This document shows positions 3,443 through 26,639 of a stretch of 64,000 bases of DNA, in pieces. This stretch comes from Candidatus Magasanikbacteria bacterium RIFCSPHIGHO2_01_FULL_41_23. GTDB taxonomy: Bacteria > Patescibacteriota > Patescibacteriia > Magasanikbacterales > UBA922. The stretch is taken from NCBI GenBank assembly GCA_001782805.1, contig MFPT01000008.1, forward strand, positions 13,162-77,161. The letters run 5' to 3'. Under the pieces are notes generated by a model. That model made no database searches, was not told where the DNA came from, and saw nothing but the letters and a program-made list of their open reading frames with translations. The position numbers and the translations under genes are program-made. Numbering within the stretch: the stretch's first letter is position 1; every line of letters begins with the position of its first letter.

Positions 3443-3481
3443 AGCGCAGGGCAACAAACCCCTCCAGATAAACGCCCACCC

Positions 3482-3653: not shown

Positions 3654-3717
3654 GAATCAATCTACATTAACCGTAACCGCAACCGCCCCGTGGTCGGGGC
3701 AAGACTGGAGTTGAAGC

Positions 3718-4652: not shown

Positions 4653-4989
4653 ATAATCCACTACACAAATGAGATTATACTACAAAACTCTTCCGGATGG
4701 AAGAGTCGTAGTGACACGGAGTATGAACCGGCATTTGCCAGCTTGTCCTCTATGTAAGTTAGAATAACACGAGGGGAATTGATTGTCAAAATTGTCAATG
4801 TGTATAACTGTCGCCCGCGCTTTGTTTCTAACATTTAGAACCAGAGCACGCGTGATAACGCGATCGACTTGCTTTAAACTTGTTTATTCTGAGCATATCG
4901 AAGAGTCGAAGAGATCTTTACAACATAAGCAAATATTTTAATTAATACAATTCCTGTGAAGCAAAATGCTGACTACAATAGTCATCAGC

Positions 4990-5082
4990 TTGCCTCACAG
5001 GAATAGCACCCCGCTTGGGGAGCGAACCCCGACTCGGGGGTGAAGTTCTGCTTTACTCCGGCTAGTCTGGGGTGAGCTTCCT
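4990..5082 (+). ncRNA. conserved ~95-nt structured element, copy B, immediately 5' of the Cys-rich lipoprotein gene
   Basis: See copy A. Here the shared 3' block ggggtgagcttcct is followed by a GGAAG hairpin, then GGAGG (5114-5118) and ATG 5126. Confidence 0.4.
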
Positions 5083-5125
5083 GGCGGAAGGTATGTTCTG
5101 TTCTGTTTTTTTTCGGAGGTGTCTT

Positions 5126-6817: not shown

Positions 6818-7109
6818 GTTCCCTCCCACCTCACGATCTCGTACGCAAGTACTTGAGATCACCACGCCACCTGTCGTGAAGAAAACAACAGGCAATCCAC
6901 ATTTTTTATTTTTCTATTAAGGAAAGTAGAAAGTGCAGATTCAAATAATCCTCTTTACAATTTAGGTTTTAACTAGGCCAGTGATTATAACAGTAATAAT
7001 TTAGTGTTTTAATCGCTGGCTTAGTTTTGTTTTACCGCATGAGGGATTTCGTAGCTGGCATTCCTTACACCAAAATGCGGTTCAACTGCAAACGAGCAAG
7101 GAGCTCCAA

Positions 7110-9149: not shown

Positions 9150-9304
9150 ACGCGCCCTCCCACCCGCTCTTTCCTTCTCCACCGCCCTCCTGAGGCATGC
9201 GGTGGCACACGATAGTGTGAGCCTCTCCCTTTGCGCAAGCCAAGGGACTCTCATCATTTTCTTCATCTGGAATGGAGAAACGTGACTAGAGTCATGTTTG
9301 ACGT

Positions 9305-10595: not shown

Positions 10596-10603
10596 AAGAA
10601 GCT

Positions 10604-12124
10604 ATGTTAAATTTTATTTCTTCAACTATTCCTGATTTTTTACTGCCGGGATTTTTTTTATTTTTTATTTTTGCCTTACTGATTTTTTTCTTAATCAGAG
10701 AACGCAAAACCGAATATGTTTTGTACGCGTTAATGATTTGGTTCCCACTGGAAAATTTCGCGCTTAATTTTGTGAGTCCGTATTGGTACGATGTTTTCAA
10801 ATATGTACCGGAAGTAATTTTATATTCTATTTTAATCGGTCTTTTTTTTAAACATTGGTCTCGTAATCGGACTGTTATATTACCACAATCACTCCGTCGT
10901 CCTTTTTTATTTTTTATTATTGTGGCAATTTTGTCATTACTATTTAATTGGTATGATCCGACAATTTGGCTTTTGGGTGTACGACAATTGATTCGTTTTG
11001 TGGCGGTTTTTTTGATTGTGTTATTGGCGTCATATTCTGAATCAGTCCGACGCACATTGTTAAAGTTGATGATTGGGATGGTTATGTTTCAGGCCTTGTT
11101 TGGTTTAGTGCAATTTGCGTTTGGTGGTCGACTAGATGTTTATTTATTTCCCGTTCGGGTAGTAAGTATCGGAAATTTGGCAACGGTTGGTGGTAATGAA
11201 TTATTTTGGACACCGGGCACACGAGTGTTTGCCACTATGGGGCGGTATGATCAGTTGGGAAGTTTTTTAATGCTTGGATTAATTGTGGTTGTTTCTTGGC
11301 TTGTGGTATATAAAAAAATAATCACGACAAATCTGGAAAAAAAAGTATTTCCTCCGCTCGCAATAACCGTGTTAGGATTATTAGTGAGTGTTTTAATTTT
11401 AACAAAATCTCGCGCCAGTTGGACTGCTGTGCTTGTTTCAATCGTATTGACTAGTTATTATTTATTTAAAAACAAAAAAATTATTTATTTAATTTCCACC
11501 GGTGTCGTTGTACTTACTTTATATGTGTTTGGTTTTATTTTAACGCATGATAATATAATGGCTTTAACCGAAAAAGATAATCAAACTGTGGCCGAACGAA
11601 TTATTGAAGCGGGAAGTTGGCGCGCGTGGCAAGAAAGTTATGAAGGCTATGGCCGAATTTTTTTTATGGTGAATACGCCGCGCGTGGTGGTGGCTGATTC
11701 GCCGGTTTTTGGGGTTGGTCCGGGAAATTATGGTGGGGGAGTTGCCGCGGCACTGGGGAATACTAAAGTTTATGATCGGTTACATTTGCCGTTTGGCGTG
11801 CAAAATACCTATGGACAAATTGATAACAGTTGGTTTAGTGTTTGGGGGGAATTTGGTACAATGGGATTGGGAGTGATAATTTGGATTTTTATTATTATGG
11901 GTAGAGATGCCAAAAAAATATATGGCGAAACGTCTCATGCGGACACAAAATTTTTGTCCGCCACGTTGTTTGGCTTGATTATTGCGATTGTGGTGATTGG
12001 TTTTTTTGGGCCTTATTTTGAATTCCGAACACTGATGTTTAATTTTTGGTTGATTGTGGGATTATTTTATACTACTGGCCAGCATGAAACTAGATCGGCT
12101 AATTTTCTTTTTAGAAAAGTTTAA
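10604..12124 (+). CDS. polytopic membrane protein, O-antigen ligase / Wzy_C-like
   Basis: About 12 predicted TM helices. The periplasmic-loop motif LTKSRASWTAVLV resembles the Wzy_C signature. ATG 10604 is taken as the start (track 10571 is TTG and overlaps the upstream gene). Confidence 0.6.
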   Translation: MLNFISSTIPDFLLPGFFLFFIFALLIFFLIRERKTEYVLYALMIWFPLENFALNFVSPYWYDVFKYVPEVILYSILIGLFFKHWSRNRTVILPQSLRRPFLFFIIVAILSLLFNWYDPTIWLLGVRQLIRFVAVFLIVLLASYSESVRRTLLKLMIGMVMFQALFGLVQFAFGGRLDVYLFPVRVVSIGNLATVGGNELFWTPGTRVFATMGRYDQLGSFLMLGLIVVVSWLVVYKKIITTNLEKKVFPPLAITVLGLLVSVLILTKSRASWTAVLVSIVLTSYYLFKNKKIIYLISTGVVVLTLYVFGFILTHDNIMALTEKDNQTVAERIIEAGSWRAWQESYEGYGRIFFMVNTPRVVVADSPVFGVGPGNYGGGVAAALGNTKVYDRLHLPFGVQNTYGQIDNSWFSVWGEFGTMGLGVIIWIFIIMGRDAKKIYGETSHADTKFLSATLFGLIIAIVVIGFFGPYFEFRTLMFNFWLIVGLFYTTGQHETRSANFLFRKV

Positions 12125-12131
12125 TTTTTTT

Positions 12132-13130
12132 ATGTCTTCAATTCCGCTTCCAATTGACTGTGTGATTGGCATCAATTATATTTGTAATTCGCGTTGTGTT
12201 ATGTGCGATATTTGGAAAATAAAATCATTTCCGGAATTGTTGCCCGAAGAATATCTTAAATTACCGGCCAGTTTGTTGGATGTGAATATTTCCGGAGGCG
12301 AAACATTTTTGCGCAAAGATATTCCGGAAGTGATTAGAGCAGTACGAACGGCTTGTCCCCAAGCGCGGGTGGTTATTTCCACCAATGGTTTTATGCCCGC
12401 GTTCATTGAACAACAAATGAAAAAAATTTTGGAAATTGATCCGACCATTGGCGTGGCCATATCGATTGACGGGGTTGGTGCAATGCATGAAACCGTTCGC
12501 CGAATTCCTGATGCGTATAAAAAATCAACGGAAACTCTGGAACGTTTGCAATCGTTGGGCATGAAAAATTTACGATTTGCGTTTACGATTATTCCGGAAA
12601 ACGTAACGCATTTCAGTAAAGTGTATGATGATGCCTGTGAGCGGCGGATTCAATTTACACATTCGTATGCCCAGAGTTCGGATAATTATTTTGGCGGTAT
12701 CCATATTATGAATGATCCGGATTTGCGGGTGTTGCGCCAACAATACGAACATATTATCGGGCGTGAATTGCAATCGTGGAATCTAAAGCGCTGGGCGCGG
12801 GCTTTTTATGCGTATAGTTTGTATCGGTTTATCAATGAAAAAAAACAAGTTTTAAATAATGATCCGGGGACACGGTTTTTCTTTATGGCGTCTGACGGAG
12901 TGGTATATCCATCGGTTGTTCACAATTACGCAATGGGGAATTTGAAAAATTTTAATTCGTGGGGAGAATTGTGGAATAGTGAGGAAGCTGAAACCGCGCG
13001 CGCAAAAGTACGAACTGAAGGCAAACCAGCCTGGATGATTTGTACAGCGCGGACGGCGATTAAAAAACATCCGTGGCAGGTAGCGAGCTGGGTGGTTAAA
13101 AATAAATTTTTTGGTTTGGAATTGGTTTGA
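12132..13130 (+). CDS. radical SAM protein
   Basis: CNSRCVMC = CxxxCxxC cluster near the N-terminus. The internal ATG 12132 is chosen because track start 12054 overlaps the previous gene by 70 nt. Confidence 0.7.
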   Translation: MSSIPLPIDCVIGINYICNSRCVMCDIWKIKSFPELLPEEYLKLPASLLDVNISGGETFLRKDIPEVIRAVRTACPQARVVISTNGFMPAFIEQQMKKILEIDPTIGVAISIDGVGAMHETVRRIPDAYKKSTETLERLQSLGMKNLRFAFTIIPENVTHFSKVYDDACERRIQFTHSYAQSSDNYFGGIHIMNDPDLRVLRQQYEHIIGRELQSWNLKRWARAFYAYSLYRFINEKKQVLNNDPGTRFFFMASDGVVYPSVVHNYAMGNLKNFNSWGELWNSEEAETARAKVRTEGKPAWMICTARTAIKKHPWQVASWVVKNKFFGLELV

Positions 13131-13135
13131 TTTTT

Positions 13136-14341
13136 ATGCGAGTTTTGCTCGTCAACAAATTTTGGTATCATCGGGGTGGAGCCGAGCAAGTGGTTTTTGT
13201 GACCAAGCAATTGTTGGAAGGAGCTGGGCATACGGTGGCGATTTTTGGAATGCATGATAGTCGCAATGAAATTACTGAACCGTATTTAGCTGATTTTGTT
13301 GATACGGCCAAACCGAGTTGGCGTGATGTTTGGCGAATTTTGTATAATCGCGAAGCCAAGAATAAATTTAGTGAACTTATAAAAAAATTTAAACCTGATA
13401 TTATTCATTTTCATAATATTTATCATCAATTATCTTTTTCCTTGATTGATGCGGGGCGAGAACTGGGGATCCCGATGGTGATGACACTGCATGATTATCA
13501 TTGGTTGTCGCCAAATTATAAATTGTTTCATCATGGACAGATTGATCAAAAATTAATCGGGAAAAAGTTTTTTCGGCCATTATTTACTAATTGTTTGGAG
13601 GATTGGCAAAAAACAGTGGTTGGGATGATTGATTTTATATTTCGTTCGCAAAAAAAATATAGAAATGCGATTGATCAATTTATTTGTCCCAGTGAATTTA
13701 TTAAACAGCTTCATGTGCGCGCCGGATGGAATGAAAGTCAACTGGCAGTGGTTGGTAATCCGATTAATCAATTTAATCAATTGCCTGATACGGATAATTT
13801 TGTGGATGGTTTATATGTGGCCTATGTTGGGCGTCTGGCCAAAGAAAAGGGGATTGAAACATTTATTTTTGCGGCAAAAATCACACCGGAGATTCCGTAT
13901 AAGATTTTTGGGACTGGTCCGGATGAAAGTAGATTGCGCGCGTTGGTAGAAAATAACGGAGTAGCTAATGTTTCGTTTGCCGGTTTTAAAATCGGTGTGG
14001 AATTAAAACAGGCGATTAACAACGCTCGCATAGTGGTTGTGCCGTCGGTGTGGTATGAAAATGCGCCGTACAGTATTTTGGAACCAATGGCATTGGGTAA
14101 AATTGTTATTGGTTCTAATATTGGCGGTATTCCGGAATTGTTACCAAAAGAATTTTTGGTGGAGCCGGGCAATCCCGAAGCTTTGGCAATCGTAATAAAA
14201 ATGTGGTTTAACAAATCTCTTGAAGAGCGAAATAGGTGGGGGAATGTTTTGCGCACAGAGGCGTTGGCGCGTCACGATTCTCATCTGTATCTTAAAAAAA
14301 TTGAAGATTTATATGAAAAATTGTTAATAAATGCCGGTTGA
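13136..14341 (+). CDS. glycosyltransferase family 4 (GT1 fold)
   Basis: C-terminal motif VVPSVWYENAPYSILEPMALGKIVIGSNIGGIPELL (E-x7-E). ATG 13136 is used; track start 13127 is TTG. Confidence 0.8.
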   Translation: MRVLLVNKFWYHRGGAEQVVFVTKQLLEGAGHTVAIFGMHDSRNEITEPYLADFVDTAKPSWRDVWRILYNREAKNKFSELIKKFKPDIIHFHNIYHQLSFSLIDAGRELGIPMVMTLHDYHWLSPNYKLFHHGQIDQKLIGKKFFRPLFTNCLEDWQKTVVGMIDFIFRSQKKYRNAIDQFICPSEFIKQLHVRAGWNESQLAVVGNPINQFNQLPDTDNFVDGLYVAYVGRLAKEKGIETFIFAAKITPEIPYKIFGTGPDESRLRALVENNGVANVSFAGFKIGVELKQAINNARIVVVPSVWYENAPYSILEPMALGKIVIGSNIGGIPELLPKEFLVEPGNPEALAIVIKMWFNKSLEERNRWGNVLRTEALARHDSHLYLKKIEDLYEKLLINAG

Positions 14342-14370
14342 CAATGGATTATTTTTTAGTATACTAGGTG
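14338..14370 (+). promoter_or_regulatory. promoter plus SD for the toxin-antitoxin operon: TTGACA-16-TATACT, then AGGTG
   Basis: ttgacaatggattattttttagtatactaggtg, then tat, then ATG 14374. Seen in sequence. Confidence 0.45.
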
Positions 14371-14373
14371 TAT

Positions 14374-14631
14374 ATGATGATGAAAATTGAGAGAAATAAC
14401 AATAGGTTTGATCAGATAAAATCTTGGATTCATTCTTTATTTTGCAATGAATCAGATAAATCGGTTAATTTTCAAACCAAACAATTACTCAATCAAAAAT
14501 TTAGTGATAGTTGTGACATCGTTTCATTTTCTGACTCGGCATCAGCTATAAATCATCTTGATGCTATTATTAAAAAACAACAAGGAGGGTATGGAGATAC
14601 ATTACAGGAGGAGTTTTATCAAAGAATTTGA
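14374..14631 (+). CDS. putative antitoxin (small protein upstream of and overlapping the RelE/YafQ-like toxin)
   Basis: 85-aa ORF with its own promoter and SD, overlapping the toxin by ~40 nt. No family motif recognised, so the call rests on context. Confidence 0.35.
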   Translation: MMMKIERNNNRFDQIKSWIHSLFCNESDKSVNFQTKQLLNQKFSDSCDIVSFSDSASAINHLDAIIKKQQGGYGDTLQEEFYQRI

Positions 14632-14848
14632 AAAAGTACCACTAAAAATTCAAATAGCTTGTCGAGATCGGATTAAACTTTTTTCTTCAGATCAATTTCA
14701 TCCGCAACTTCATAATCATGCCTTATTGGGGAATTTTTTAGGATATCGTAGTATAAATGTTATGGCTGACTGGCGAGCAATCTTTGTCAAAGAAGGCGAA
14801 GACTGTACATTTTTTTATGTTAGGACACATAGTCAGTTGTACCACTGA
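14591..14848 (+). CDS. type II toxin, RelE/YafQ family (mRNA interferase)
   Basis: The C-terminus HALLGNFLGYRSINVMADWRAIFVKEGEDCTFFYVRTHSQLY parallels the YafQ/RelE pattern (H-x-L-x-G-x-x-x-G-Y-R ... I-Y ... R-x-G-x-H-x-x-L-Y). AAGGAGG precedes the ATG. Confidence 0.6.
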   Translation: MEIHYRRSFIKEFEKVPLKIQIACRDRIKLFSSDQFHPQLHNHALLGNFLGYRSINVMADWRAIFVKEGEDCTFFYVRTHSQLYH

Positions 14849-16847
14849 AAATAAAAAAAACGCGCGCTTTTTGGGTTTATTTTTGCTAATTTTTTTGGGT
14901 ATTTGTGCTCCTATTTTTGTATATCAAACAAAAGCTCAAAGCGGGGGAGCGAAATTGGTGAACTATCATTTAGGTCAGCTATATTCTGGAATGACCAATG
15001 ATTTATCTAAGTATGACATATTGGTGCTGTCTCCGGCACAGATTGCGACTCATCAAGGAATAATGGGCGATATAAAAAAGTTGAATCCACAGATAATTAT
15101 TTTAGCATACGTCCCAAGTCAAAGTTATAACACTAATTATTGGCCAAGAGATGTGGTTTTTAGTGCTCTTAACGTGTCTGATGCTTGGTGGTTGCGCGAT
15201 AGTCGTGGCAAAATTATATCAGCGTGGCCCGGTATAAAAAATATAAATTTGGATCAAACATGGAGTGAATATTTTCTTCCATTTGTGCGGGATCATATTA
15301 GCGTCCTCTCCGGAGTGGATGGGATTTTTTTTGATATGGTTTCGCCTAATATTTCGTGGTTGAATAATGGTGACATTGATTTGAATGGCGATGGTGTGCG
15401 TGATATTTCCAGTCAAGCCGATGCACTGTGGCTTAATCGCACTGAATATTTTTTTAAGCGAGCCAAAGAAATAATGCCTACGATGTATATTGTTGATAAT
15501 GGAACTTCCGCTGCTGTGGTTCAGCCTTATGTTCATGGTCGGATGTATGAAAATTTTCCTACGCCTTGGGAAGGCGATGGTTCGTGGGGTACGGTAATGA
15601 ATCGAGTGCATGAAACACAAAAAAATAATCGTGTTCCTCATATTTCAATTATAAATTCCAATACTGCTAATACTGGCGTACAAAATTACCGTGATGTTCG
15701 GTTCGGTTTGGGGAGTGCGCTATTGGAGAACGGTTATTTTTCCTATGATTATGGTGACCAAAATCATGGTCAAACATGGTGGTATGATGAATATAATGTT
15801 CGACTTGGCCAGCCAATTGGTGGTTCAGTATCGCGGGCGAATTATGCAACGTATCAACCGGATCTGTGGCATCGGGATTTTGATCATGGTTTGGTGTTGG
15901 TAAACAGTACGCCGCAATTGGTGGCTGTGGATTTGGGCGGGGATTATGAAAAAATTAATGGCAGACAAGATCCGACGGTTAATGATGGCTCAATTGTGTC
16001 TGAAGTTGAGATTGCTCCCAACGATGGATTGGTTTTGTTGAAAACCACTTCGCGGCTTGATGATGTGATTTTTTCCAACGGTTCTTTTGCGCGGTTTTAC
16101 AAGCCTGATGGCATCCGTGTGCGGAATGGTTTTTTTGTTTTCGATGAGGAATATAAAGGTGGCGCGCAGATTTTATATTTTGATTTTGATGGCAATGCAA
16201 AACATGATACTTTGGTTGCGAGCGGGAATAAAATTACGGCCACGCGCGACGATGGTCAGCCGTTTTTCAAAATTTATCCGTACACGGCGAATTATTCCGG
16301 CAATTTAGTCTTGGCGGTTGGTGATCTTGATAACGATGGTTTTGATGAACTGTATGTTGCGCCGGATAAAGGGTCGTATCCGATTAAAATTTACAATTTG
16401 TTTGGCGAAGAAATTTTGCCTGAAGGCTGGTATCCGTTTGGTAAAAAATATCAGGATGGTTATTCTTTGGCAATTGCGGGCAAAGGATATGATGGTCGGT
16501 TAGTGATTGGAGCGAATCATGCTACGGGTCAGAATGATCATGATTCAACCGTCGGACTATATGATGCCGGATTAAAAAAAACCGCGGAATGGTCGATTTT
16601 TAAACAATCAAATCATGAACTAATGGTTGGAGCAGGGGATTTGGATGGTGATGGTATGCCGGAGATTGTCGCCGGATTTGGTAGTGGACGAAAGCCGACT
16701 CTTAAATTATATACACTTGAAGGAAAAGAATTTGGTCAGCCGATTATTTTTGCCGGTGAAATTTTTCGGAACGCGCAGATTCAAATTACTGATGTTAATT
16801 TTGATGGCGCGGCCGATATTGTGCTTCTGACAAGTGGGGCTTTATAA
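14812..16847 (+). CDS. secreted FG-GAP/VCBS-repeat (beta-propeller-like) protein with an N-terminal ~400-aa domain of unknown function
   Basis: Signal/TM FLGLFLLIFLGICAPIFVYQTKAQS. Repeats GDLDNDGFDELYVAPD, GDLDGDGMPEIVAGF and VNFDGAADIVLL. Start is uncertain (ATG 14812, or TTG ~14871). Confidence 0.6.
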
Positions 16848-16858
16848 ATTATAAAAAT

Positions 16859-17989
16859 TTATGCTTTGTACATTTCAATAATCCGCGGCATAATTGCGTC
16901 CCACCGATACTGTTTTTCAATAATCAATACATTTTCTTCGCCAAGTTTTTTTTGTTCATCAGATGATAATGATAAAAATGTGTTTAATTTGGTTTTAAGA
17001 TCAGACGAATCATTTTGATTAAAAATAATTTTTGGATTATTGATTAATTCCAAATGTTCCGGAATGTTTGACAGCAATACCGGTTTAGCCCAGTTCATGG
17101 CTTCAAGCACTGTAATGGGCAGGCCTTCATTGAGTGAAGGATGCACCAAGACTTTGGCATGGGCAAACAATGTTTCCAATGCTTGGCCACTTTGAAAATC
17201 AGTAAACACAATGTCATTGCATAAATTGGCCTTCTGATGAAGATTTTTTATATACTCATTGGTATACGCCGATCCGCCGACAATTACCAATTTTAAGTTG
17301 GTGATTGCCGGATTATTTATGTTTTGTTTGAGAGCGCTAAACGCATCAATTAAAATATGCGCTCCTTTGTGCGGTACGAGACGCGCGACCATAAGGATAT
17401 ATTGACTACTGACTAATCCAAATTTTTTCAATAATTCTTCCGAATTAATTGTTTCAACTTGGTTTACTGCATTCGGAATGTACGTTGTTTCTCGATCAAA
17501 TTCATTCAGGCAATATAATTGTAAACTGCGCGACACCGTGATTGTTTTGTGCGCAAATAAAACCGTTGCCTTTTCACCGATCCGTAAAAATAATTTTGCG
17601 ATCAGCCCCCATTTTTGGTGATAGCGGTCAATGGAGTGAAATGTTGTTATCACTTTTGTTCGTGGCGAAAAAAGACGAGGGATCCAAGACACAAGTGCCG
17701 GACCAACTCCATGATAATGGATTACGTCATATTTTTGACTCAGGGCATGTAGTGAAGACAAGAGGGTGTGCGTAAACGTATCAAGATGTTTTGTTTTAAT
17801 TGATGCGAGATGTTTGATTATTACGCCGTCAATATTTATTGTTCCTTGGTTTTTGGTGTACCAAGATCGGCCATAGACAGTTACGTCATGGTTCAATTTT
17901 GCCAAATGCACTGCCAGGTCGTGGACATGGCGTTCCACTCCACCAAAGCTGGCCGGCATTCCTTTTTGTCCGATCATGGCGATACGCAT
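16859..17989 (-). CDS. glycosyltransferase family 4
   Basis: MRIAMIGQKGMPASFGGVERHV at the N-terminus and LVHPSLNEGLPITVLEAMNWAKPVLLSNIPE at the C-terminus, typical of GT4. Confidence 0.8.
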   Translation of the reverse strand: MRIAMIGQKGMPASFGGVERHVHDLAVHLAKLNHDVTVYGRSWYTKNQGTINIDGVIIKHLASIKTKHLDTFTHTLLSSLHALSQKYDVIHYHGVGPALVSWIPRLFSPRTKVITTFHSIDRYHQKWGLIAKLFLRIGEKATVLFAHKTITVSRSLQLYCLNEFDRETTYIPNAVNQVETINSEELLKKFGLVSSQYILMVARLVPHKGAHILIDAFSALKQNINNPAITNLKLVIVGGSAYTNEYIKNLHQKANLCNDIVFTDFQSGQALETLFAHAKVLVHPSLNEGLPITVLEAMNWAKPVLLSNIPEHLELINNPKIIFNQNDSSDLKTKLNTFLSLSSDEQKKLGEENVLIIEKQYRWDAIMPRIIEMYKA

Positions 17990-18142: not shown

Positions 18143-19204
18143 TTAGACCCCGGAATATTCTTGAACCAAGCCAACAAATTGGTGAAACAGACGCCGGTTT
18201 TGTTTTGAGATTGGCAGGTCATGAACCAAGTCATGACAGAGACCGGTATGATCCTGAACCATATCAAGAATTTTTTCGCGAATTTTATATTTCCCGCATA
18301 GTTCACGAACATAATTGGCCTGTGACAAAGGAATTTGATCCAACCAAAATGTATAGTTGAATTTTTCTTTTTCTGAGCGATTTAACTCAGGCAAAAGCAG
18401 TGCGCACCACAGCGTTGGTTGTTTATTGTTAAGATCCTCAATGAGGTTTTTACTGTTACCATTTTCATTGAAGCCGGCCAGATCATCAAGCGCTTGGAAA
18501 GCAATACCAAGAGATTCACCTATGGCTTTCAGAAATAAGCGGGTGGTTTCATCTGGCGTATGACTTAGTATAAATCCGGATACCAGCGGTAAGACAAAAC
18601 TATATGCTCCGGTTTTACTTTCGTATAAATGCAAGACGTCGTCTATGTTATGTGTTGGTTCATGAGCCACGGCATCATATACTTGCGCGCGTGTAGTACG
18701 AGTGAGTATGTTCAGAAAAAGAGTTAGTAATTCCACTTTGGTTTCATTGGCGCATTCCAAACTAATCAGTTGATTCAGTACAAATTGGATTAAATAATCT
18801 CCGACCGCGATAGCAGTGCCAACCCCATGTCGTTCATATGCCAACACGCCTCGTCCTTCAAAAATTGCTTTTAGACGAGCGGGAAAACTTAAGGTATCGC
18901 GTCTGATGGGGCTTTCATCAATAATGTCATCATGAATTAAGAGCGCATAATGCAAGACCTCGATTAATCCGGCGACTTGTTCTACGATTTTTGTTTCTTT
19001 TGCGCCAAAACTCTCTGCTGACAACAGACAAAGACCGCCTCTCCAGGCTTTGCCGATTTGTGAGGCGAGCTGTAATTCTTTAAAAATATAATGGTCGTTC
19101 GAAAAATCTTCGCGTGCTTGATTTTCTACATCATCAATAACAGTTCTTACTTGTGCGGCAATATTTTGTCGCCATGTTGCCAGATTGCGCTCTATGTCTT
19201 TCAT
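18143..19204 (-). CDS. trans-polyprenyl diphosphate synthase (trans-IPPS_HH; GGPPS/IspA/ComQ-like)
   Basis: GKAWRGG substrate motif, FARM LIHDDIIDESPIRRD, SARM GIAFQALDDLAGF. Last gene of the peptide-kinase-cyclase operon, 3 nt from the upstream gene. Confidence 0.85.
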   Translation of the reverse strand: MKDIERNLATWRQNIAAQVRTVIDDVENQAREDFSNDHYIFKELQLASQIGKAWRGGLCLLSAESFGAKETKIVEQVAGLIEVLHYALLIHDDIIDESPIRRDTLSFPARLKAIFEGRGVLAYERHGVGTAIAVGDYLIQFVLNQLISLECANETKVELLTLFLNILTRTTRAQVYDAVAHEPTHNIDDVLHLYESKTGAYSFVLPLVSGFILSHTPDETTRLFLKAIGESLGIAFQALDDLAGFNENGNSKNLIEDLNNKQPTLWCALLLPELNRSEKEKFNYTFWLDQIPLSQANYVRELCGKYKIREKILDMVQDHTGLCHDLVHDLPISKQNRRLFHQFVGLVQEYSGV

Positions 19205-19206: not shown

Positions 19207-21099
19207 CTAATTATAATGTTTGATTAAAGCTTGCATGGTTTGATGTTCGCGCATTACTGTGTGCAGAGCATCTCCCAATCGGTTAATGGTTTTAGAAAGC
19301 ATAATTGGTGCGGAAGCACGCCATGATATTTTTTTCATTATGTATAGCGCTTGTTCGATTTCTTGTTGTGCCTGACGAATGGCAATTACAATCCCTTCTT
19401 CCCAAAATATTTCTTTTGCCGCTCCACTATTATTGAGCGCGGGGAAAGCATAACATGACAGAAATAATGGCTTGGTCACGCCGGTCAGACGATTGGCCGC
19501 ATAATCTTCATTCCAATCATGTAAATCATCGCACATCTGGCGCGCGTTCAGATAATGGGTAAATAGTTTTTTTAACTGCTGTTGCGTTTCTTTTGTTTGG
19601 CGAGAAATAATTGAAATTAATTGTGGTCCCAGAGTGTGACCAAACGAGCGTTCGCATAAATTAAGAGTCGTGGATCCGAGCAATTCTTTGGCATACGCAG
19701 AATCCGCAAAAAAATGAGTTCGTTCTTTCAATTCATGGGCATGAGCCAAATCAATATGATCAAGAGTGTCAGTTACCAATTCGGTTGGTATGCGATATTC
19801 GGTTGCGACTGCATGGTATCCCAGTGTTGCTTCGCGCAAACAAATATTGGCCAATGATAAATTTTGGGAAATAGTTCCCTCGTCATAGCATCCATCGTAC
19901 AATTGATATGAGAGCCAGCCCCACAAATTGGCTGTTCCCAGTTCGATGTATAATTGCAAAGGGAGTTCAGCTTCAAACGCGCGAGCAATATCAAAACTGA
20001 TTAGGGTAATTTCGCGTGCCAGTGGTGTACCGACTAATGTACTGAATTCTTGCAGGCCTACGGTGAATAAATTATGATCAAGCTTGTTTAATTTTCCGGC
20101 CACTGTGGTAATTATTACATCATGGAGCTGATTTTCCACTGATGAAATGATTGGTGATTTACTGCATCTTCCTACTTCATAATCATCATAATAGTTTATC
20201 GCGAGCGCGCAAACCGTGGCTGTTAATGCTACGCATCCGGATATTTCCGTGGTTGCATTCTCTTGTTTTTCCAGAATGCACGGATCAGCGGCATATGCTT
20301 GTCCGGCTCCAATTATTTTTTTAGCGTATTCAGTAATTATTATGGAGTCACTGCCGATTTTTATCATGAGTATTAATGTTAATCCCAATTCCAGAAGTGA
20401 TAATCCATCAATTTTTTGTGAATAACCATTTACTATTTTTTTAATCTCCGTGTCACACTGGCCATTTAATCCTCGATCCAATAAAAATAACATTAGTGGT
20501 TCAGAGACATAATATGGTGATCGCCAATTATTAGTGGCTATTCTATCAATAATATAATTATTCAAATTGTTTAAAACAACGTCTTGTTGTTTTAACGCGT
20601 AAGCAATTCCGGCATTAACCACCGGATCAATGTCAGACCATTTTTCCTCGTTTTTAGTCATTATCCATGTTTTGTATGGTCCGCCCGGTTTTTCTTCGTT
20701 ATTTGTGAGAGATTGGATGTACTGTATTAATGTTTGTATTTCCAGATTTTTGGTTACTGATTGAACCACAATCGCCAGACTGCTGTCATCAAGATCAGCC
20801 GGATACGGAAATTGCGTATTGTGCGTATCTGTTTGTGCCCAATATGACCATAGTTCGTTGTCAGATTTTTCTGATTGCAAAAAATAATTTATTTTTTTTA
20901 TTATATCGTGCGTTTCTTTTCTTTTGAGCATAGCCAGTATGCTGCCAATTAAGGCGGGATAGAAAATAGTACTATGGTTCACCGGAGATTTGTCCAATGA
21001 ATTACGCGTTATACTGGTAAAACCGCCATCATTGTTTTGATTGTGGGTAACAAAAATAATTGCGGAGCGCACATACTCGGCGCTATCAAAAATAGGCAT
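19207..21099 (-). CDS. terpene-cyclase-like protein: class-II motifs (QW-like QNNDGGF; DxDD as FPYPADLDDSSLAIV) plus a C-terminal DDxxD (MCDDLHDWNEDY)
   Basis: Motifs read directly from the translation. Sits between the HK and the polyprenyl synthase with 7-nt and 3-nt gaps (operon). Function inferred from motifs only. Confidence 0.5.
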   Translation of the reverse strand: MPIFDSAEYVRSAIIFVTHNQNNDGGFTSITRNSLDKSPVNHSTIFYPALIGSILAMLKRKETHDIIKKINYFLQSEKSDNELWSYWAQTDTHNTQFPYPADLDDSSLAIVVQSVTKNLEIQTLIQYIQSLTNNEEKPGGPYKTWIMTKNEEKWSDIDPVVNAGIAYALKQQDVVLNNLNNYIIDRIATNNWRSPYYVSEPLMLFLLDRGLNGQCDTEIKKIVNGYSQKIDGLSLLELGLTLILMIKIGSDSIIITEYAKKIIGAGQAYAADPCILEKQENATTEISGCVALTATVCALAINYYDDYEVGRCSKSPIISSVENQLHDVIITTVAGKLNKLDHNLFTVGLQEFSTLVGTPLAREITLISFDIARAFEAELPLQLYIELGTANLWGWLSYQLYDGCYDEGTISQNLSLANICLREATLGYHAVATEYRIPTELVTDTLDHIDLAHAHELKERTHFFADSAYAKELLGSTTLNLCERSFGHTLGPQLISIISRQTKETQQQLKKLFTHYLNARQMCDDLHDWNEDYAANRLTGVTKPLFLSCYAFPALNNSGAAKEIFWEEGIVIAIRQAQQEIEQALYIMKKISWRASAPIMLSKTINRLGDALHTVMREHQTMQALIKHYN

Positions 21100-21105: not shown

Positions 21106-22608
21106 TTAATTTTTTGACCACGAGATGATAAAAGAAGTACCTTTCGTCGGTTCGCTCTCGACTGAAATATCCGCACTTAATTCCTGACGCAATAATTCTT
21201 GAGCGATATTTAAACCAAGTCCTATCCCTCGTTCAGATTTGGTGCTAAAAAACGGATCAAAAATAAATGGTAAAAGTTTTGAATCAATTCCGCATCCCGT
21301 ATCCTTAATAATCAATTGACATTTTTGTTTATCTCGAGCGATTTGTCCTGAGTGGCTTGTGGTGAGCGACTTGTGGTGAGCACAGTCGAACCAAGTCGAA
21401 CCGAGTCGAGGGAAATCGATGGATTCAATCGTGAATGAAATAAATACGGTTCGTTCGCGATCGATTGGATTTTCCGCACAGGATTCAATGGCATTGGTTA
21501 AGATATTCACCCAAGCTCGGTACAGACGCAGTGGATTGGCAGTTACTTTACACGATGCGAAATCAGGGCACTCAATTTTTGTACTGACCTGATTTGCATT
21601 ATATTGTACTGCGTGAATGGCTTGTTTGACTGTTTCTCCAATTTCAATTACCCGTGATTCATTTCTATTTGATAATTCGCGTCTTATTCTATCAATCAGT
21701 TCTGACAACTGATTGGTCGCCGATAAAGCGACATTAATTTGTTCGCGTATTTCTCCTGCGTTAATGGAATTATTTTTACTTAATTGATCAATATGCATGG
21801 TTACGGCCGTGAGCGGATTAATTAAATCATGCATCAGTCCGGCTGATAATTTGCCGATTTCAGTTAGTCGCGATGTTTCTTTTAATCGCTCCAGCTGTGT
21901 ATGCTCCAATTCTTTGGTACGGGCAAGAACGCGCTCTTCCAGTGTGTCTCTTTCTTTTTTAACCAATACTTCGGAACGTCGCGCGCGACGAAGACTATTT
22001 TCAATCTCTTGATACGCGAGCCAAGTAATTCCGGAAATTACCAATAATATAATCGTAATTTCCATACTGTAATTGGCATACAATGTATTGTGCATCCAGC
22101 TTTCATCCACCGATATAAGGTTGTGCTGGTGTGCATAATCAAGGAGGCCAAGATAACTACCCAATGCAATCGCCATTATAATCGCTGATCGCGTATTTAA
22201 TAGAATACCAATCAAAACAATAATCAGACTAAGAGTCAAAAGCGGTATTGGTAATAGCGTACCCCAGCGGGTGAGTGAATATAGGGTTGGTATAATCAAC
22301 AGACCCAAAAATGCGTATGAGGAAAATTTCCACCAGCCTTTTCTGGCTAGGTATAACAGACCAAGAAAAAGGCCGGAAATTATGACTGATATCCAAATAG
22401 GAATTCCTCGCGGCGACGTTCCCGGTATGGTTGCTAAAGAAGCCACTGAAACAGTGAACAAAATTGAAAGAGCTGACAAAAAGATGAGCAAGACGCATAA
22501 AATATATTCGCGCCGCGCATCATCCTCTCGTCGTGAGGTTGGCTGAGTTATTTTTTGCCAAAATGTCCTCAGCCGGAAAAGAATGGAAAAGAAAAAATCT
22601 TTTGACAC
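21106..22608 (-). CDS. sensor histidine kinase (HisKA + HATPase_c), N-terminal polytopic membrane domain
   Basis: H-box LSAGLMHDLINPLTAV, N-box NILTNAIESC, G-boxes IIKDTGCGID and GIGLGLNIAQELL. About 6 TM helices over the first 200 aa. GTG start 2 nt after the stop of the small peptide ORF. Confidence 0.85.
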   Translation of the reverse strand: MSKDFFFSILFRLRTFWQKITQPTSRREDDARREYILCVLLIFLSALSILFTVSVASLATIPGTSPRGIPIWISVIISGLFLGLLYLARKGWWKFSSYAFLGLLIIPTLYSLTRWGTLLPIPLLTLSLIIVLIGILLNTRSAIIMAIALGSYLGLLDYAHQHNLISVDESWMHNTLYANYSMEITIILLVISGITWLAYQEIENSLRRARRSEVLVKKERDTLEERVLARTKELEHTQLERLKETSRLTEIGKLSAGLMHDLINPLTAVTMHIDQLSKNNSINAGEIREQINVALSATNQLSELIDRIRRELSNRNESRVIEIGETVKQAIHAVQYNANQVSTKIECPDFASCKVTANPLRLYRAWVNILTNAIESCAENPIDRERTVFISFTIESIDFPRLGSTWFDCAHHKSLTTSHSGQIARDKQKCQLIIKDTGCGIDSKLLPFIFDPFFSTKSERGIGLGLNIAQELLRQELSADISVESEPTKGTSFIISWSKN

Positions 22609-22610: not shown

Positions 22611-22721
22611 CTAGCCTGACCAGGGGGGTGTATTAACCGCTGTCTTTTGGGCAAGACTGGCTAACATTTTCTTTTGACGACCTTCGGTGCTTTCAAGAAT
22701 TGCGCTAATGAGGTTTGACAT
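22611..22721 (-). CDS. small peptide, 36 aa, MSNLISAILESTEGRQKKMLASLAQKTAVNTPPWSG; candidate precursor/signal peptide with Trp at position -3
   Basis: Canonical SD AAGGAGA 3-4 nt before the ATG (SD is rare elsewhere in this window). Its stop lies 2 nt before the HK start codon. C-terminal ...PPWSG resembles ComX pheromone tails (...QWGD). Confidence 0.4.
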   Translation of the reverse strand: MSNLISAILESTEGRQKKMLASLAQKTAVNTPPWSG

Positions 22722-22750: not shown

Positions 22751-22781
22751 GTGCAAGCGATGTCGACCTAGTGCAATCGCT
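22751..22781 (-). promoter_or_regulatory. direct repeat GTGCAAGCGAT / GTGCAATCGCT (20-nt phasing) upstream of the peptide-HK operon; candidate OmpR-type regulator binding site, with TTGCAC / TATAAG promoter-like hexamers
   Basis: Seen in sequence in the 310-nt gap between the RR and the operon. OmpR-family regulators bind tandem direct repeats. Confidence 0.25.
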
Positions 22782-22917
22782 GTGATTTTCCCTATAGAAC
22801 ATTAATTGTTTGTTCCTATATATATCATAGCGGTTTTGAGCTTAAATTTTCTTCAATTATTTCTTAAATTCTTTTTTCATAAAAAAGTTACAACACAGCC
22901 TAGTTTTTACCATAGTC

Positions 22918-23592
22918 TTAAATTTTTACGCTCAAACGATAACCGCGACCTTGAACCGTGTGGATAAGTTTGTGCCGATTGCCAATGTCCAATTGTTTAC
23001 GCAACTCGCAAATATGCGCTTCAAGCGTGTTTGACCACACATCAGCATTCATATCCCACACATGCTCCATAATTTGCGCGCGGGTTATTATTTCATCGGG
23101 TCGACGGATGAGATATTCCAAAAGCATATATTGTTTGCGTGACAAATCAACAAAATATTTTCCGCGATGAACAACTTGCTTGGCTGTATCCAATACCACA
23201 TCATCGATTTTGTAAATGGTGTTATTCGGTAGGCTTGGTCGACGAGTCAAGGCTCTTAAGCGCGCCAGTAATTCTGCGGTGGAAAATGGTTTGGTCAAAT
23301 AATCATCAGCGCCAAGATTCAAGAGACTGACTTTTTTGTCCACTTCATGATTAATTGATAAAACCAAAATGGGAACATACTTGCCTCGGCCGCGAATATG
23401 AGAGCAGACTTGTTCGCCATTTTTCTTGGGCAAATTATAATCCAGAATGATAAGATCATAATCATTCACACAGGCTAATGACGTCGCGGTTTCACCGTCA
23501 CCGGCGGTATCAACAGCGTATGATTCATACTTTAACGCTGTTTTAAGACTGCTGAGGAGAATGGGATCATCATCAACAATAAGAATTCGCAT
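22918..23592 (-). CDS. response regulator, OmpR/PhoB family (REC + winged-helix)
   Basis: MRILIVDDDPILL...DLIILDYNLP receiver domain, C-terminal trans_reg_C-like region (...HTVQGRGYRLSV). The internal ATG at 23592 is taken as the start; the track extends to 23628. Confidence 0.85.
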   Translation of the reverse strand: MRILIVDDDPILLSSLKTALKYESYAVDTAGDGETATSLACVNDYDLIILDYNLPKKNGEQVCSHIRGRGKYVPILVLSINHEVDKKVSLLNLGADDYLTKPFSTAELLARLRALTRRPSLPNNTIYKIDDVVLDTAKQVVHRGKYFVDLSRKQYMLLEYLIRRPDEIITRAQIMEHVWDMNADVWSNTLEAHICELRKQLDIGNRHKLIHTVQGRGYRLSVKI

Positions 23593-23696
23593 AGATTGTA
23601 ATTGTACCGCACTTATGGCACTGGGCACAAAAATTTTATGCGCAATGGGGAAGACGGACGATTCGGAAAAAATCGTCCGTGCCGATTGAGGTGGGT

Positions 23697-24680
23697 TTAG
23701 CCGTTGTTTCCATCCGGGTCGCAGGTGTCCCCGAAACCCAAACCATCAGCGTCGTTATCAATTTGCGTCGGATTGAATTTCCAGGCGCAATTGTCAACAG
23801 CGTCAGGAATGCCGTCGTTGTCGTCGTCTATGTCGATATTGTTTGGAACTCCGTCGTTGTCCAAATCCGTGTCACATCCGCCGAAGATTCCATCTTGGTC
23901 ATTGTCTCCCTTATTGTACACACATTCGGATTTCGAGGGATTGCACACTCCTATGTAACAGGGGATCGACTCAGGAATGACGCAAACGTACGGACTTCCG
24001 GCGCATTTACCAGACGTACAGACATCGTTTTCTGTACACCAATTACCATCGTCACATAAAGCGACGTTGGCCACAAACGAGCAACCAATCTTTGGATCAC
24101 AGGCATCGTTAGTGCAGGAGTTTTTGTCATCGCAGTCAAGATCCACACACTTGGGAAGTTCTATTACTTCAGGTGCACTAATCGAACCATGGTCTGATAT
24201 TTGATTAGTGTCATCTGAAATATCGTTTGACCACGTTTTAATGTCATTGTCGTAGGTATCCACAATTTCATTTTCAGACGTGGTCGTGGTATCAACATTA
24301 AGGACATCATTAATCACATCGCTCGTGTCCGAGACATTAATGTCCATCGACGTTTCAAAATTTTCCGAAACATCGGCATCGTTGTAGGATCCATCTGCAG
24401 TATCATTCGGCCTGAACACTTCGTCCGTCATCGTAACGATGTCTTTCTGATCCGTATCCTGCTGCGTCACGTCTTGATACGTCGTCTCGGTTTGAGACAT
24501 CACGTCGGGCAACACGCTGGACACATCGTCCGTAACATCGCTCTGGAACACGAAAGTCGCCTGCGCTTCTTTGCCTACATCAGCAGACATTTTTCGTTGG
24601 AAAGAGATTTCATCGATATTTCTGTCAAACACGCATCCGGCTAGAAAAAAAATAACGAACAAGACAATAAAACTTCTCAT
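23697..24680 (-). CDS. cysteine-rich repeat lipoprotein with thrombospondin-type-3-like Ca-binding repeats (native low-GC paralog of the high-GC cassettes)
   Basis: Lipobox MRSFIVLFVIFFLAGC. Repeat units CDDKNSCTNDACDPKIGCSFVANVALCDDGNWCTENDVCTSGKC. TSP3-like DTDLDNDGVPNNIDIDDDNDGIPDAVDNC and DNDADGLGFGDTCDPD. Ordinary AT-rich codons. Confidence 0.7.
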   Translation of the reverse strand: MRSFIVLFVIFFLAGCVFDRNIDEISFQRKMSADVGKEAQATFVFQSDVTDDVSSVLPDVMSQTETTYQDVTQQDTDQKDIVTMTDEVFRPNDTADGSYNDADVSENFETSMDINVSDTSDVINDVLNVDTTTTSENEIVDTYDNDIKTWSNDISDDTNQISDHGSISAPEVIELPKCVDLDCDDKNSCTNDACDPKIGCSFVANVALCDDGNWCTENDVCTSGKCAGSPYVCVIPESIPCYIGVCNPSKSECVYNKGDNDQDGIFGGCDTDLDNDGVPNNIDIDDDNDGIPDAVDNCAWKFNPTQIDNDADGLGFGDTCDPDGNNG

Positions 24681-24785: not shown

Positions 24786-26639
24786 TTATTGTACAAGCAC
24801 ACCTTTTTTTCGGGCGATTGCATCATCGGGTAAACTAGTATCAATATTAGAACCAAAACCAATAACTGTTTTATTAATAAATGTATCCCATCCTGAAATA
24901 TGTACATTAGCAAGAAGAGGTAAAATTGTACCGCGTTCGCTTGGTGTTGGCATAATTGCCAATTCAAAATTTACTTGCGCACTTTCGTGCGCCGAAAGAT
25001 GGGAAATTTCCCAGGAAACAGTGCGATTTTCCGGAGAATAGATTGGTTCTCGTCCTTGATTCACGCTTGTTTTTCCTGTCCAATTAACTCCTGACGGCAA
25101 AGTCGCTGTTAGTTTGAGTCCGGAAACAGCACTCGTTCCATTTTGGATTTCCAAAAGTGCCCAATATTTTGTTTCTTTTCCAACCACTGGAGGCAAATGT
25201 CCGCGGCCAATTTGATCACCTTCCGCAGAATAATAATGCGCGCTCGCATTGATGTTTAGACTTGTACCAATTGCCAAAGGATTTAATTGTGCGTTTGTTT
25301 CAAACAATTGAGTAATTCCAACTACTTCAGCAGTAATTTTTGGATTAAGGACAAGATTAAGATTCGTCGCTCCACTTGGATGTAAGGAAATGGGAATTAT
25401 TATGGGGATTTGTATTGCTGTGCCGCGAGCGAGAAAATTAAGTTCGGGGAATTTTTTTTGCGATATGATTAAATTTGATCCTTGGCTGGAAAAATTGTTT
25501 TTTTGTCGAGCCGCAGCTATTGATACGAGAGCTGAAGGCAGAGGAATACTCAAATTAAGATTTTTTAAATCAACGCTCCCAGTATTTTTTAGCCGGATTA
25601 TTATTTGGGCTATGTCTCCGGGACTGGCTGTATTGACTGACCATTGGCCGGAGATTTCAATATTCGGATGGGCCACTGCACTTTTGGCCGCAATTTTATT
25701 TTGATTGAATATAGTACCGTTAATTATAATTGATGGCGTCAACTCAAGAGAAATCGTGTCAATATTTTTTGGTACGGAAGCCGTAATCGTCAGAGTAGTA
25801 GTCGCACTTTCATTGGCATTCAGATGGGGAATATACCATTTTTCTCGATCGATTTTCCCCGCTGTAGTTGAGTCTATTTTGTAACTCGTATATTTATTGG
25901 ATTCGACGGGAATAACAATATTTTCCAAATCATGATGATTGTTATTTTTTATTACCAGTTCACTTTTCCAACTACTGTTTTCAAAAATAGTCGCGGGTGC
26001 GGATAATGATCCAATCAAAGTGGAATCTCGAAGTGTGGCGATTACTCCTGTAGTCACAACTTCAAAAATGTTACGATTTTTTTGCCGGTAGACCAATTCA
26101 ATTCCCGTAGGATAATTATGATTTGGTTCACCGAAAAATTGACCGGCAAATATAATTTCACCTTCAGTTTTTGGCTCAATGTTTGGCACGCTAATTGAGT
26201 GAGTGTTGGTAACAAAATTTTTGCCGTTTACATTAAATAGAATAAAACCAACAGGGAAATTAATGTGCATTATTGGGTCAACCAATACTACCTCGCTATT
26301 ATTTTTATAGGTGACGGAAAAAAATAAATGCTCGCCACTCTGGACTCGATTTAATTCACTTTGCTCATGTCCATTGATTTTTATTGAAATTGCGACATTT
26401 TTTTGAACAGTTGGATCATACCAGTGCCAAAAGAGGCCGATACCACCAATAATAAAAATACTGGCCAAAAGTAGCATGTCAAACAAAAAAAGTTTGCGAG
26501 CATGGGCAAACCGCAGATGATATTTTTTTTGATAATGAACTTCCAGCGCATGAATCGGGGAAATCAAGAAAGCCAGAAACCATTTGTGCGGAGCATGAAG
26601 AAGGTGATGTTTGGTAAGATGATTGGAGACATACCTCAT
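24786..26639 (-). CDS. hypothetical membrane-anchored extracellular protein (N-terminal TM, large beta-rich ectodomain)
   Basis: TM LLLASIFIIGGIGLFWHWY, then ~540 aa with many N-x-S/T sites and no recognised catalytic motif. Confidence 0.55.
   Translation of the reverse strand: MRYVSNHLTKHHLLHAPHKWFLAFLISPIHALEVHYQKKYHLRFAHARKLFLFDMLLLASIFIIGGIGLFWHWYDPTVQKNVAISIKINGHEQSELNRVQSGEHLFFSVTYKNNSEVVLVDPIMHINFPVGFILFNVNGKNFVTNTHSISVPNIEPKTEGEIIFAGQFFGEPNHNYPTGIELVYRQKNRNIFEVVTTGVIATLRDSTLIGSLSAPATIFENSSWKSELVIKNNNHHDLENIVIPVESNKYTSYKIDSTTAGKIDREKWYIPHLNANESATTTLTITASVPKNIDTISLELTPSIIINGTIFNQNKIAAKSAVAHPNIEISGQWSVNTASPGDIAQIIIRLKNTGSVDLKNLNLSIPLPSALVSIAAARQKNNFSSQGSNLIISQKKFPELNFLARGTAIQIPIIIPISLHPSGATNLNLVLNPKITAEVVGITQLFETNAQLNPLAIGTSLNINASAHYYSAEGDQIGRGHLPPVVGKETKYWALLEIQNGTSAVSGLKLTATLPSGVNWTGKTSVNQGREPIYSPENRTVSWEISHLSAHESAQVNFELAIMPTPSERGTILPLLANVHISGWDTFINKTVIGFGSNIDTSLPDDAIARKKGVLVQ

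Follow-up and report, generated by a model that had tools for sequence, protein, structure and literature searches.

The comQXPA locus of Bacillus, the palP-palX-palQ locus of Paenibacillus and the ChrPC/NctPC enzymes are the described systems closest to the gene cassette reported here. This cassette lies in a 64,000-nucleotide stretch of Candidatus Magasanikbacteria bacterium RIFCSPHIGHO2_01_FULL_41_23 (contig MFPT01000008.1, hereafter the window) and comprises genes for a 630-residue two-domain terpenoid-type enzyme, a small Trp-containing peptide, a histidine kinase and a response regulator. In Bacillus, ComQ is related to the farnesyl and geranylgeranyl diphosphate (FPP and GGPP) synthases and has an essential first aspartate-rich motif (FARM); the enzyme geranylates or farnesylates a Trp of ComX located third or fourth from the C-terminus, and the product is sensed by ComP and ComA (PMC5331326). 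The Paenibacillus locus groups a kinase, a precursor and PalQ, a Trp prenyltransferase resembling trans-isoprenyl diphosphate synthase enzymes (trans-IDS) that had earlier been misannotated as a terpene synthase (PMC10853753). ChrPC and NctPC (Hubrich et al., Chem 2024), as summarized in a 2026 review, are fusions of a prenyltransferase with an MstE-like cyclase: in ribosomal peptides, an internal Trp receives a C10-C20 prenyl group, which the enzyme then cyclises. The review describes the P domain of ChrPC as trans-IDS-like (PMC13290415). Concerning the cyclases, the drimenol synthase AsDMS and MstE are described as the only class II enzymes made of a beta domain alone (PMC12232559; PMC12414744).

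The window cassette resembles each of these systems in part. As in comQXPA, a modifying enzyme, a precursor, a membrane histidine kinase and a response regulator are encoded in one operon, the enzyme is related to FPP/GGPP synthases, and the precursor carries a Trp a few residues from its C-terminus. As for PalP-PalX-PalQ of Paenibacillus alvei, a histidine kinase, a precursor and a trans-IDS-like, putative Trp prenyltransferase are clustered. With ChrPC/NctPC, as the review presents them, the window protein shares both domain types and the presence of a Trp peptide in the operon. Its N-terminal domain consists, like MstE (Scytonema) and the cyclase domain of AsDMS and AstC, of one alpha/alpha-barrel beta domain in which the acid motif lies ~100 residues in. 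MstE acts on prenyl chains that are already bound to an aromatic ring and cyclises them, the same chemistry as is proposed for the window enzyme. The 630-residue protein is predicted, with a confidence somewhat better than even, to be a bifunctional maturase of a ribosomally synthesised and post-translationally modified peptide (RiPP), making a cyclic-terpenoid Trp-peptide pheromone. The enzyme type and the ComX-like logic are each already known. The new element is their combination, conserved across phyla of the Candidate Phyla Radiation (CPR, or Patescibacteria): a fusion with the cyclase first, a short Trp peptide that bears a leader, and a two-component system of its own. The fusion, the leader-bearing peptide and the two-component system were not found together in the searchable literature, and nothing on the family was found in the literature on Patescibacteria/CPR terpene cyclases, ComQXPA and RiPP prenyltransferases or pheromones.

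The Trp peptide and the adjoining kinase and regulator

The cassette reads as follows in the window, in the order of transcription:

22918..23628, minus strand: OmpR-type response regulator, 236 amino acids, first gene of the cassette (Response_reg E 1.6e-28, Trans_reg_C E 1.3e-22)
22611..22721, minus strand: putative precursor peptide, 36 amino acids, MSNLISAILESTEGRQKKMLASLAQKTAVNTPPWSG, with a single Trp 3 residues before the stop
21106..22608, minus strand: membrane histidine kinase, 500 amino acids (HATPase_c E 4.9e-16, HisKA E 2.7e-6)
19207..21099, minus strand: two-domain enzyme, 630 amino acids, ATG start
18143..19204, minus strand: polyprenyl diphosphate synthase, 353 amino acids, optional fifth gene (PF00348 E 9.8e-36)

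The peptide is encoded by a 111-nt open reading frame (ORF) between the regulator and kinase genes, with an AAGGAG Shine-Dalgarno sequence 6 nt before its ATG and a stop codon 2 nt before the kinase start; the kinase-enzyme and enzyme-synthase spacers are 7 and 2 nt. In homologous contigs it is called as a 36-amino-acid gene. In 77 loci, a hidden Markov model (HMM) of the peptide has a single match each, with E-values from 1e-5 to 2e-15. The seven misses are contigs that end before the region and one further match is an artefact of a run of N; the ORF is present in every locus whose region is readable. The 73 distinct peptides are 33-40 residues long, and their common leader reads M-x-x-h-h-x-x-(I/V)-L-T-D-x-x-x-R. 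All 73 possess a Trp, always 1-6 residues from the C-terminus, which is the only Trp in 71 of them and is preceded by Pro in 61.

The context of the enzyme gene was surveyed by calling ORFs in 84 related loci and in the window and searching them with the neighbour genes of the window. A histidine kinase is encoded directly upstream on the same strand in 80/84 loci, a precursor-type peptide upstream in 72/75, and an OmpR-type regulator upstream on the same strand, ~1.6 kb away, in 64 of the 70 loci with enough sequence. When all neighbouring ORFs were clustered, no other family was common to more than 7 of the 84 loci, which indicates that these genes move as a cassette through otherwise unrelated neighbourhoods; it occurs in Saccharibacteria, Microgenomates, Parcubacteria, Doudnabacteria and CPR2. 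Synteny by descent was considered as the cause of the shared neighbours and rejected, as at most 7/84 loci share a family beyond the four to five cassette genes. The polyprenyl synthase, on whose adjacency the initial annotation had relied, does adjoin the enzyme gene in the window, but it is found directly downstream on the same strand in only 23/81 loci (~28%) and was rejected as the defining context. This context is instead the peptide/kinase/regulator module, three conserved upstream genes that had been overlooked. Where it is adjacent, the synthase likely supplies the prenyl donor.

The kinase's N-terminal part precedes HisKA and HATPase_c and is polytopic: within its first 200 residues it displays approximately 4-6 hydrophobic helices connected by short loops, with hydropathy peaks at residues 36-54, 69-87, 118-136 and 180-198. 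Such a predicted topology is as expected for the sensor of a ligand that partitions into the membrane.

Several loci depart from the common arrangement. In three Saccharimonadales loci (L050, L078 and L080), the peptide and kinase genes are on the strand opposite to the enzyme gene and a regulator-like gene lies immediately downstream. In L006 (Candidatus Magasanikbacteria), no kinase gene separates peptide and enzyme, and the enzyme match begins at query residue 122; this locus may be a decaying or rearranged copy.

The region upstream of the peptide gene contains short repeats. At 22841-22873 of the window, the direct repeat A(G/A)AATTTAAG occurs twice with a 22-nt spacing. The contig with the closest NCBI homologue (P0005), L004 (GCA_013558295.1, contig JACCDN011144537.1), harbors a similar pair, AAAACTTAAG / ATAACTTAAG, equally spaced and likewise located ~150-160 nt upstream of the peptide start. 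The OmpR-type regulator may bind at this repeat, in which case the cassette would be autoregulated. Another pair, GTGCAAGCGATGT / GTGCAATCGCTGT, is found at 22751-22783 with a 20-nt spacing. Across the loci, direct repeats upstream of the peptide have no common spacing that would define a universal regulator box, and generic promoter and terminator scans returned counts equal to the shuffled expectation.

A beta-only cyclase domain followed by a trans-IDS-like domain

The initial annotation had described the enzyme ORF at its correct coordinates and overlooked its strand: the gene is on the minus strand, and the plus-strand translation of the interval is riddled with stops. The three motifs it had quoted are present and conserved in the family, namely QNNDGGF (residues 21-27), FPYPADLDDSSLAIV (residues 97-111) and MCDDLHDWNEDY (residues 522-533); a further one, the first Asp-rich motif YDGCYD, had escaped notice. 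Searched alone, the protein has no significant match in Pfam, NCBIfam or PDB sequences, the only hints being TIGR01787 at E 0.045 and a spurious MCRA match. The family to which it belongs lacks a curated model, the window protein is recognised by no Pfam or NCBIfam profile, and 'hypothetical protein' is the only source name seen for family members.

This family is large. A word-indexed search with the window protein returned 8 full-length relatives of 36-69% identity, without Pfam domain or name, and its repetition with a profile of 97 sequences added none. HMMER scanning with the alignment of these 8 relatives yielded 1,715 representatives of clusters at 50% identity with E ≤ 1e-3, and 830 with E ≤ 1e-30; among the 150 representatives listed, nearly all are 560-700 residues long and most align over their full length. 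When one genome per species was scanned, more than 314 loci with a family member were identified. The labels of the best 80 of them are overwhelmingly Patescibacteria/CPR (Saccharibacteria, Shapiro-, Roizman-, Davies- and Levyibacteria, Morani-, Paceibacterota, Magasanikbacteria, Doudnabacteria and CPR2), while a minority carries unconfirmed labels such as 'uncultured Gammaproteobacteria' or 'Vitreimonas'.

Conservation was examined in an alignment of 97 sequences with ~25% identity to the window protein. D102, D104, D524 and D528, which are among the residues by which the initial annotation had proposed to judge homologues, are invariant, as are D406, Q521 and D532; D105, D402, D525, Q21, G25 and F27 are conserved in at least 90% of the sequences. 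This conservation of the motifs is far beyond chance. It also bears on the proposal that the protein serves the two-component system without catalysis, as an accessory or sensor such as a cytoplasmic modulator of the kinase that binds lipid or prenyl groups, with the small ORF encoding a kinase-associated regulatory peptide. Such a role would fit the strict coupling to the kinase (80/84 loci) and the fact that no curated family recognises the protein. The catalytic residues of both enzyme classes (D102, D104, D402/D406, D524/D528/D532) are however invariant or nearly so at this low identity, which signals retained catalysis and not a binding scaffold, and makes the accessory role highly improbable.

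The two domains and their motifs are located as follows:

20161..21099, minus strand: N-terminal domain, residues 1-313, alpha/alpha barrel resembling beta-only class II terpene cyclases
20785..20796, minus strand: DLDD, residues 102-105, class II general-acid motif, assigned by alignment and conservation
19207..20160, minus strand: C-terminal domain, residues 314-630, trans-IDS-like alpha domain, putative Trp prenyltransferase
19882..19899, minus strand: FARM-like motif YDGCYD, residues 401-406 (family consensus YDDFLD)
19504..19539, minus strand: region resembling a second aspartate-rich motif (SARM), QMCDDLHDWNED, residues 521-532, with Q521, D524, D528 and D532 invariant

The AlphaFold2 (AF2) model of the whole protein (mean pLDDT 81.5) consists of an alpha/alpha barrel followed by an all-helical domain, in agreement with the two-domain terpenoid-type enzyme first claimed from the sequence. 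The best PDB match of the N-terminal domain in Foldseek is AsDMS (9m7f, E 4e-8), and MstE (6sbb) is matched at E 3e-7 with a target-normalised TM score of 0.66; beta-gamma cyclases such as squalene-hopene cyclase score far lower. Sequence profiles lead to the same enzymes. The family profile matches drimenol synthase 9mhs (the AsDMS cyclase domain) over residues 42-311 at E 3.9e-15, and AstC at E 3.5e-4. In this comparison the family consensus PYPDDLDDT is aligned on FPDDLDTTS of AsDMS, and the invariant D104, the middle Asp of a full DxDD (D102-L-D104-D105), is aligned with the catalytic D333, which is an Asn in the D333N crystal structures. The assignment of DLDD as a class II acid motif therefore holds. 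Weak SQHop_cyclase_C/N and Prenyltrans matches among family members are consistent with the earlier 'QW-like' remark. The gamma domain is absent, as everything beyond the beta domain is the all-alpha C-terminal domain. The motif does lie unusually close to the N-terminus, as had been pointed out; the explanation is a beta-only, 'monodomain' cyclase of the AsDMS/MstE type, not a rearranged beta-gamma enzyme. By fold and profile, residues 1-313 are a class II terpene cyclase domain of the MstE/drimenol-synthase type, with predicted activity.

The C-terminal domain, modelled separately (residues 314-630, pLDDT 81.8, pTM 0.80), has a class I alpha fold that contains CDDLHDW, but is not best described as the class I terpene synthase proposed in the initial annotation. 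Its top 50 PDB neighbours in Foldseek (E 2e-4 to 4e-3, TM scores 0.45-0.66) are all trans-IDS/polyprenyl synthases or the prenyltransferase MoeN5; no terpene cyclase is found among them. With hhalign, the domain profile aligns to that of the co-located polyprenyl synthases with a probability of 86% (E 5e-6). ARQLnDDaHD (RQxxDD) falls on their FQxxDD SARM and D532 on the Asp of the D-x-x-G-K-x-T motif that follows; under relaxed settings, YDDFLD is matched to HDDIID, the FARM of the neighbouring synthase family, within a low-confidence stretch of the alignment. In the AF2 models, YDGCYD is located at the C-terminal end of a long helix. The clade of the window has lost the second Asp of the FARM (DGCYD) and has kept the first and fifth, D402 and D406. 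These are the positions that are essential in ComQ, where function is lost when the first or the fifth Asp is mutated (PMC5331326). Pfam matches in this region are few and weak: Terpene_syn_C_2 in 6/70 family members (best E 1e-5), Terpene_synth_C in 2/70 and polyprenyl_synt (PF00348) in 2/70, the latter only reaching E 0.03. The window protein itself matches none of these three families, nor any NCBIfam model, and hence does not belong by sequence to the ComQ/polyprenyl_synt family. Given the structural neighbours, the profile alignment and this paucity of Pfam matches, the domain is best described, from model and sequence, as a diverged trans-IDS-like module and not as a recognisable class I cyclase. 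Class IB large-terpene synthases (YtpB/BalTS) were considered and rejected: their first motif, DYLDNLxD, is unmatched, the D...D..ED spacing of the second, DY(F,L,W)IDxxED, is resembled by DDLHDWNED, and no DUF2600-type Pfam match was seen.

These results weigh on the main idea of the initial annotation, a bifunctional class II and class I terpene synthase. In that scheme, the beta domain would cyclise a free prenyl diphosphate by protonation to a drimenyl- or copalyl-like intermediate, which the alpha domain would ionise to a free cyclic terpene; the two-component system would merely regulate the enzyme and the small ORF would be unrelated. AsDMS, the closest sequence-detectable relative of the beta domain, indeed acts on free FPP, the DDxxD and a D/D/D triad with NSE/DTE spacing are invariant, a few members have the weak terpene synthase matches just mentioned, and a polyprenyl synthase adjoins the gene in the window. 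Against this stand the absence of terpene cyclases from the structural neighbours of the alpha domain, the alignment of its profile to trans-IDS enzymes, SARM on SARM, and the lack of a synthase in ~72% of the loci. Moreover, the scheme leaves unexplained both the peptide with its invariant Trp in essentially every locus and the kinase gene between peptide and enzyme, and it is judged unlikely.

A trans-IDS-like fold could also mean that the alpha domain is a chain-elongating prenyl diphosphate synthase, whose product the beta domain would cyclise to a cyclic prenyl diphosphate or membrane lipid with a hopanoid- or sporulene-like envelope function under two-component control. Both FARM and SARM are kept, fold and profile are closest to trans-IDS enzymes, and the window is embedded among many envelope-glycan genes that form a large island. 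However, the isopentenyl diphosphate-binding elements of IDS enzymes (GKxxR, RRG after the FARM and the GK loop after the SARM) have no conserved counterpart in the alignment of the C-terminal domain, which argues against chain elongation. The loss of the second FARM Asp in the window clade points in the same direction, a separate bona fide polyprenyl synthase adjoins in 23 loci and would be redundant, and the Trp peptide is again left unexplained; elongation is thus regarded as quite unlikely. None of the three alternatives, the accessory role included, explains the co-inherited Trp peptide.

The proposed pathway compared with described systems

In the proposed bifunctional maturase, the Asp residues of the FARM-like motif in the C-terminal domain, together with Mg2+, would bind a C10-C20 prenyl diphosphate. 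In the window this donor would be supplied by the synthase whose gene starts 2 nt after the enzyme gene, and in other genomes by a synthase encoded elsewhere. As ComQ, PalQ and the P domain of ChrPC do with their precursors, the domain would transfer the prenyl group to the single invariant Trp (Trp34) of the 36-residue peptide, whose gene is two genes upstream of the enzyme gene with the kinase gene between. D104 of the N-terminal domain would then protonate the terminal double bond of the attached chain and cyclise it. For this step, MstE acting on prenylated aromatics and, in the account given by the review, the C domains of ChrPC/NctPC acting on prenylated Trp provide precedents. After probable removal of its conserved N-terminal leader, the lipidated peptide would be released and sensed by the polytopic kinase, signalling through the OmpR-type regulator in a ComQXPA-like autoinducer circuit. 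An aside in the initial annotation, that the enzyme might act on a prenylated peptide, is the reading with the best support. The architecture is unusual, as had been claimed, but not unprecedented, since fusions of a prenyltransferase with a cyclase that modify ribosomal peptides were described in 2024 (PMC13290415).

The differences from the described systems are nonetheless numerous. The gene order is regulator, precursor, kinase, enzyme instead of Q-X-P-A in comQXPA. The precursors of the window family have 33-40 residues and a conserved leader, while ComX has 53-58 residues and none. The window enzyme possesses an extra class II cyclase domain and an intact SARM, compared with the pseudo-SARM of ComQ, and is without detectable PF00348 membership. 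PalX is a precursor of the NHLP type whose acceptor Trp has to be the C-terminal residue, whereas 1-6 residues follow the Trp of the CPR peptides, and a cyclase domain is missing from PalQ. MstE is a stand-alone cyclase with a DxD in place of the full DxDD of the window protein; AsDMS has a HAD phosphatase as fusion partner and takes free FPP as substrate, whereas the partner of the window cyclase is a trans-IDS-like domain. As to ChrPC, the window protein has its cyclase at the N-terminus and its prenyltransferase at the C-terminus; the name 'PC' suggests the reverse order in the enzymes covered by the review, which is unconfirmed. The window cassette further differs from the systems outlined there by its 33-40-residue precursor and by being built around a histidine kinase and a response regulator.

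Some observations weigh against the proposed maturase. The SARM is fully Asp-rich (DDxxD and D532), unlike the pseudo-SARM of ComQ, and the review by Okada considers a DDxxD SARM unsuitable for Trp isoprenylation in ComQ (PMC5331326). In trans-IDS-like Trp prenyltransferases, a Gln just before the SARM and the first SARM Asp have been proposed to recognise the indole NH (PMC13290415). The invariant Q521 and D524 match this pair, but the same Gln occurs in ordinary polyprenyl synthases (FQxxDD) and is therefore non-discriminating. The spacing of D524, D528 and D532 also fits a triad of the NSE/DTE type, and the weak Terpene_syn_C_2 matches tell the same way. The two-component system is of the OmpR/HisKA type, unlike ComP/ComA; this difference of subfamily makes the window system analogous, not orthologous, to comQXPA. 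No protease or exporter is conserved in the cassette according to the clustering of neighbouring ORFs. Finally, the AF2 models of the whole protein and of the C-terminal domain were built from only 8 sequences, and the ChrPC comparison, in which the overwhelmingly Patescibacteria labels of the best loci of the window family form a further difference, is one by description in the review and not by sequence.

The genomes of CPR bacteria are tiny and encode few biosynthetic pathways, and for most of their conserved proteins of unknown function there is no explanation. For a family of ~1,700 clusters without a Pfam model, the proposed maturase offers a concrete, testable function, in which the substrate would be the 36-residue peptide, the donor the product of the adjacent synthase and the receptor the adjacent kinase. 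A broader proposal, held tentatively and at a little under even confidence, is that Patescibacteria carry a native, vertically conserved autoinducer circuit, in which the signal, a short ribosomal peptide with a polycyclic terpenoid on a C-proximal Trp, would be made by the fusion enzyme and read by a dedicated polytopic kinase. If true, no earlier lineage-wide signalling system, between cells or between symbiont and host, would have been defined for these ultra-small episymbionts, and terpene-cyclised RiPPs would have a natural role as pheromones and not as toxins. The proposed maturase itself, if correct, would tie the newly discovered terpene-cyclised ribosomal peptides to ComX-like signalling and widen their range, now a few secondary-metabolite clusters, to an entire bacterial superphylum. 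It would also provide an experimental handle on how episymbiotic CPR cells sense one another or their hosts. For annotation, the lesson is that the decisive clue beside a gene resembling a terpene synthase is a 111-nt ORF ignored by most pipelines.

Other features of the window and of related contigs

Most of the remaining window (10571-17989 and 33772-63968) is a very large envelope-glycan gene island. It comprises at least ten glycosyltransferases (GT4/GT2), two Wzy_C proteins resembling O-antigen ligases, several nucleoside-diphosphate-sugar epimerases/dehydratases, a C-methyltransferase, an asparagine synthase, two PMT_2 proteins and a GHL15 / FG-GAP protein, together with a UbiA-family prenyltransferase at 41907-42770. 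The polyprenyl synthase beside the enzyme could also serve carrier-lipid synthesis in the clade of the window.

Just upstream of the response regulator, at 23697-24680 (minus strand), lies a gene for an Asp/Cys-rich protein with TSP_3 / Dicty_CTDC-like repeats, with homologous loci in the clade of the window at L001 (5209-7506) and L004 (4902-7430). A protein with DUF11/CLIPPER domains (24786-26639) and a helix-turn-helix gene are encoded near it, with synteny only in close relatives. As to L004 itself, its assembly has more than 1 million contigs and looks like a eukaryotic or host-associated project with a CPR-type contig as passenger.

A block at 2100-9200 stands out by a G+C content of 56-60%, against 34-46% elsewhere in the window. 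It encodes two Cys/Asp/Thr-rich, secreted-looking proteins, one at 7110-9149 (plus strand) with Dicty_CTDC repeats (E 3.6e-44) and the other, a similar one of 581 residues, at 5072-6817 (plus strand), as well as a tRNA at 4580-4652 (minus strand). From 2100 to 4900, overlapping ORFs occupy every frame, none of them convincing. The block could be a codon-driven composition, a foreign insertion or an assembly chimera. Between it and the glycan genes, at 9360-10595 (plus strand), lies a gene for an AAA_14 / DUF4143 ATPase, a family often found in mobile or defence contexts.

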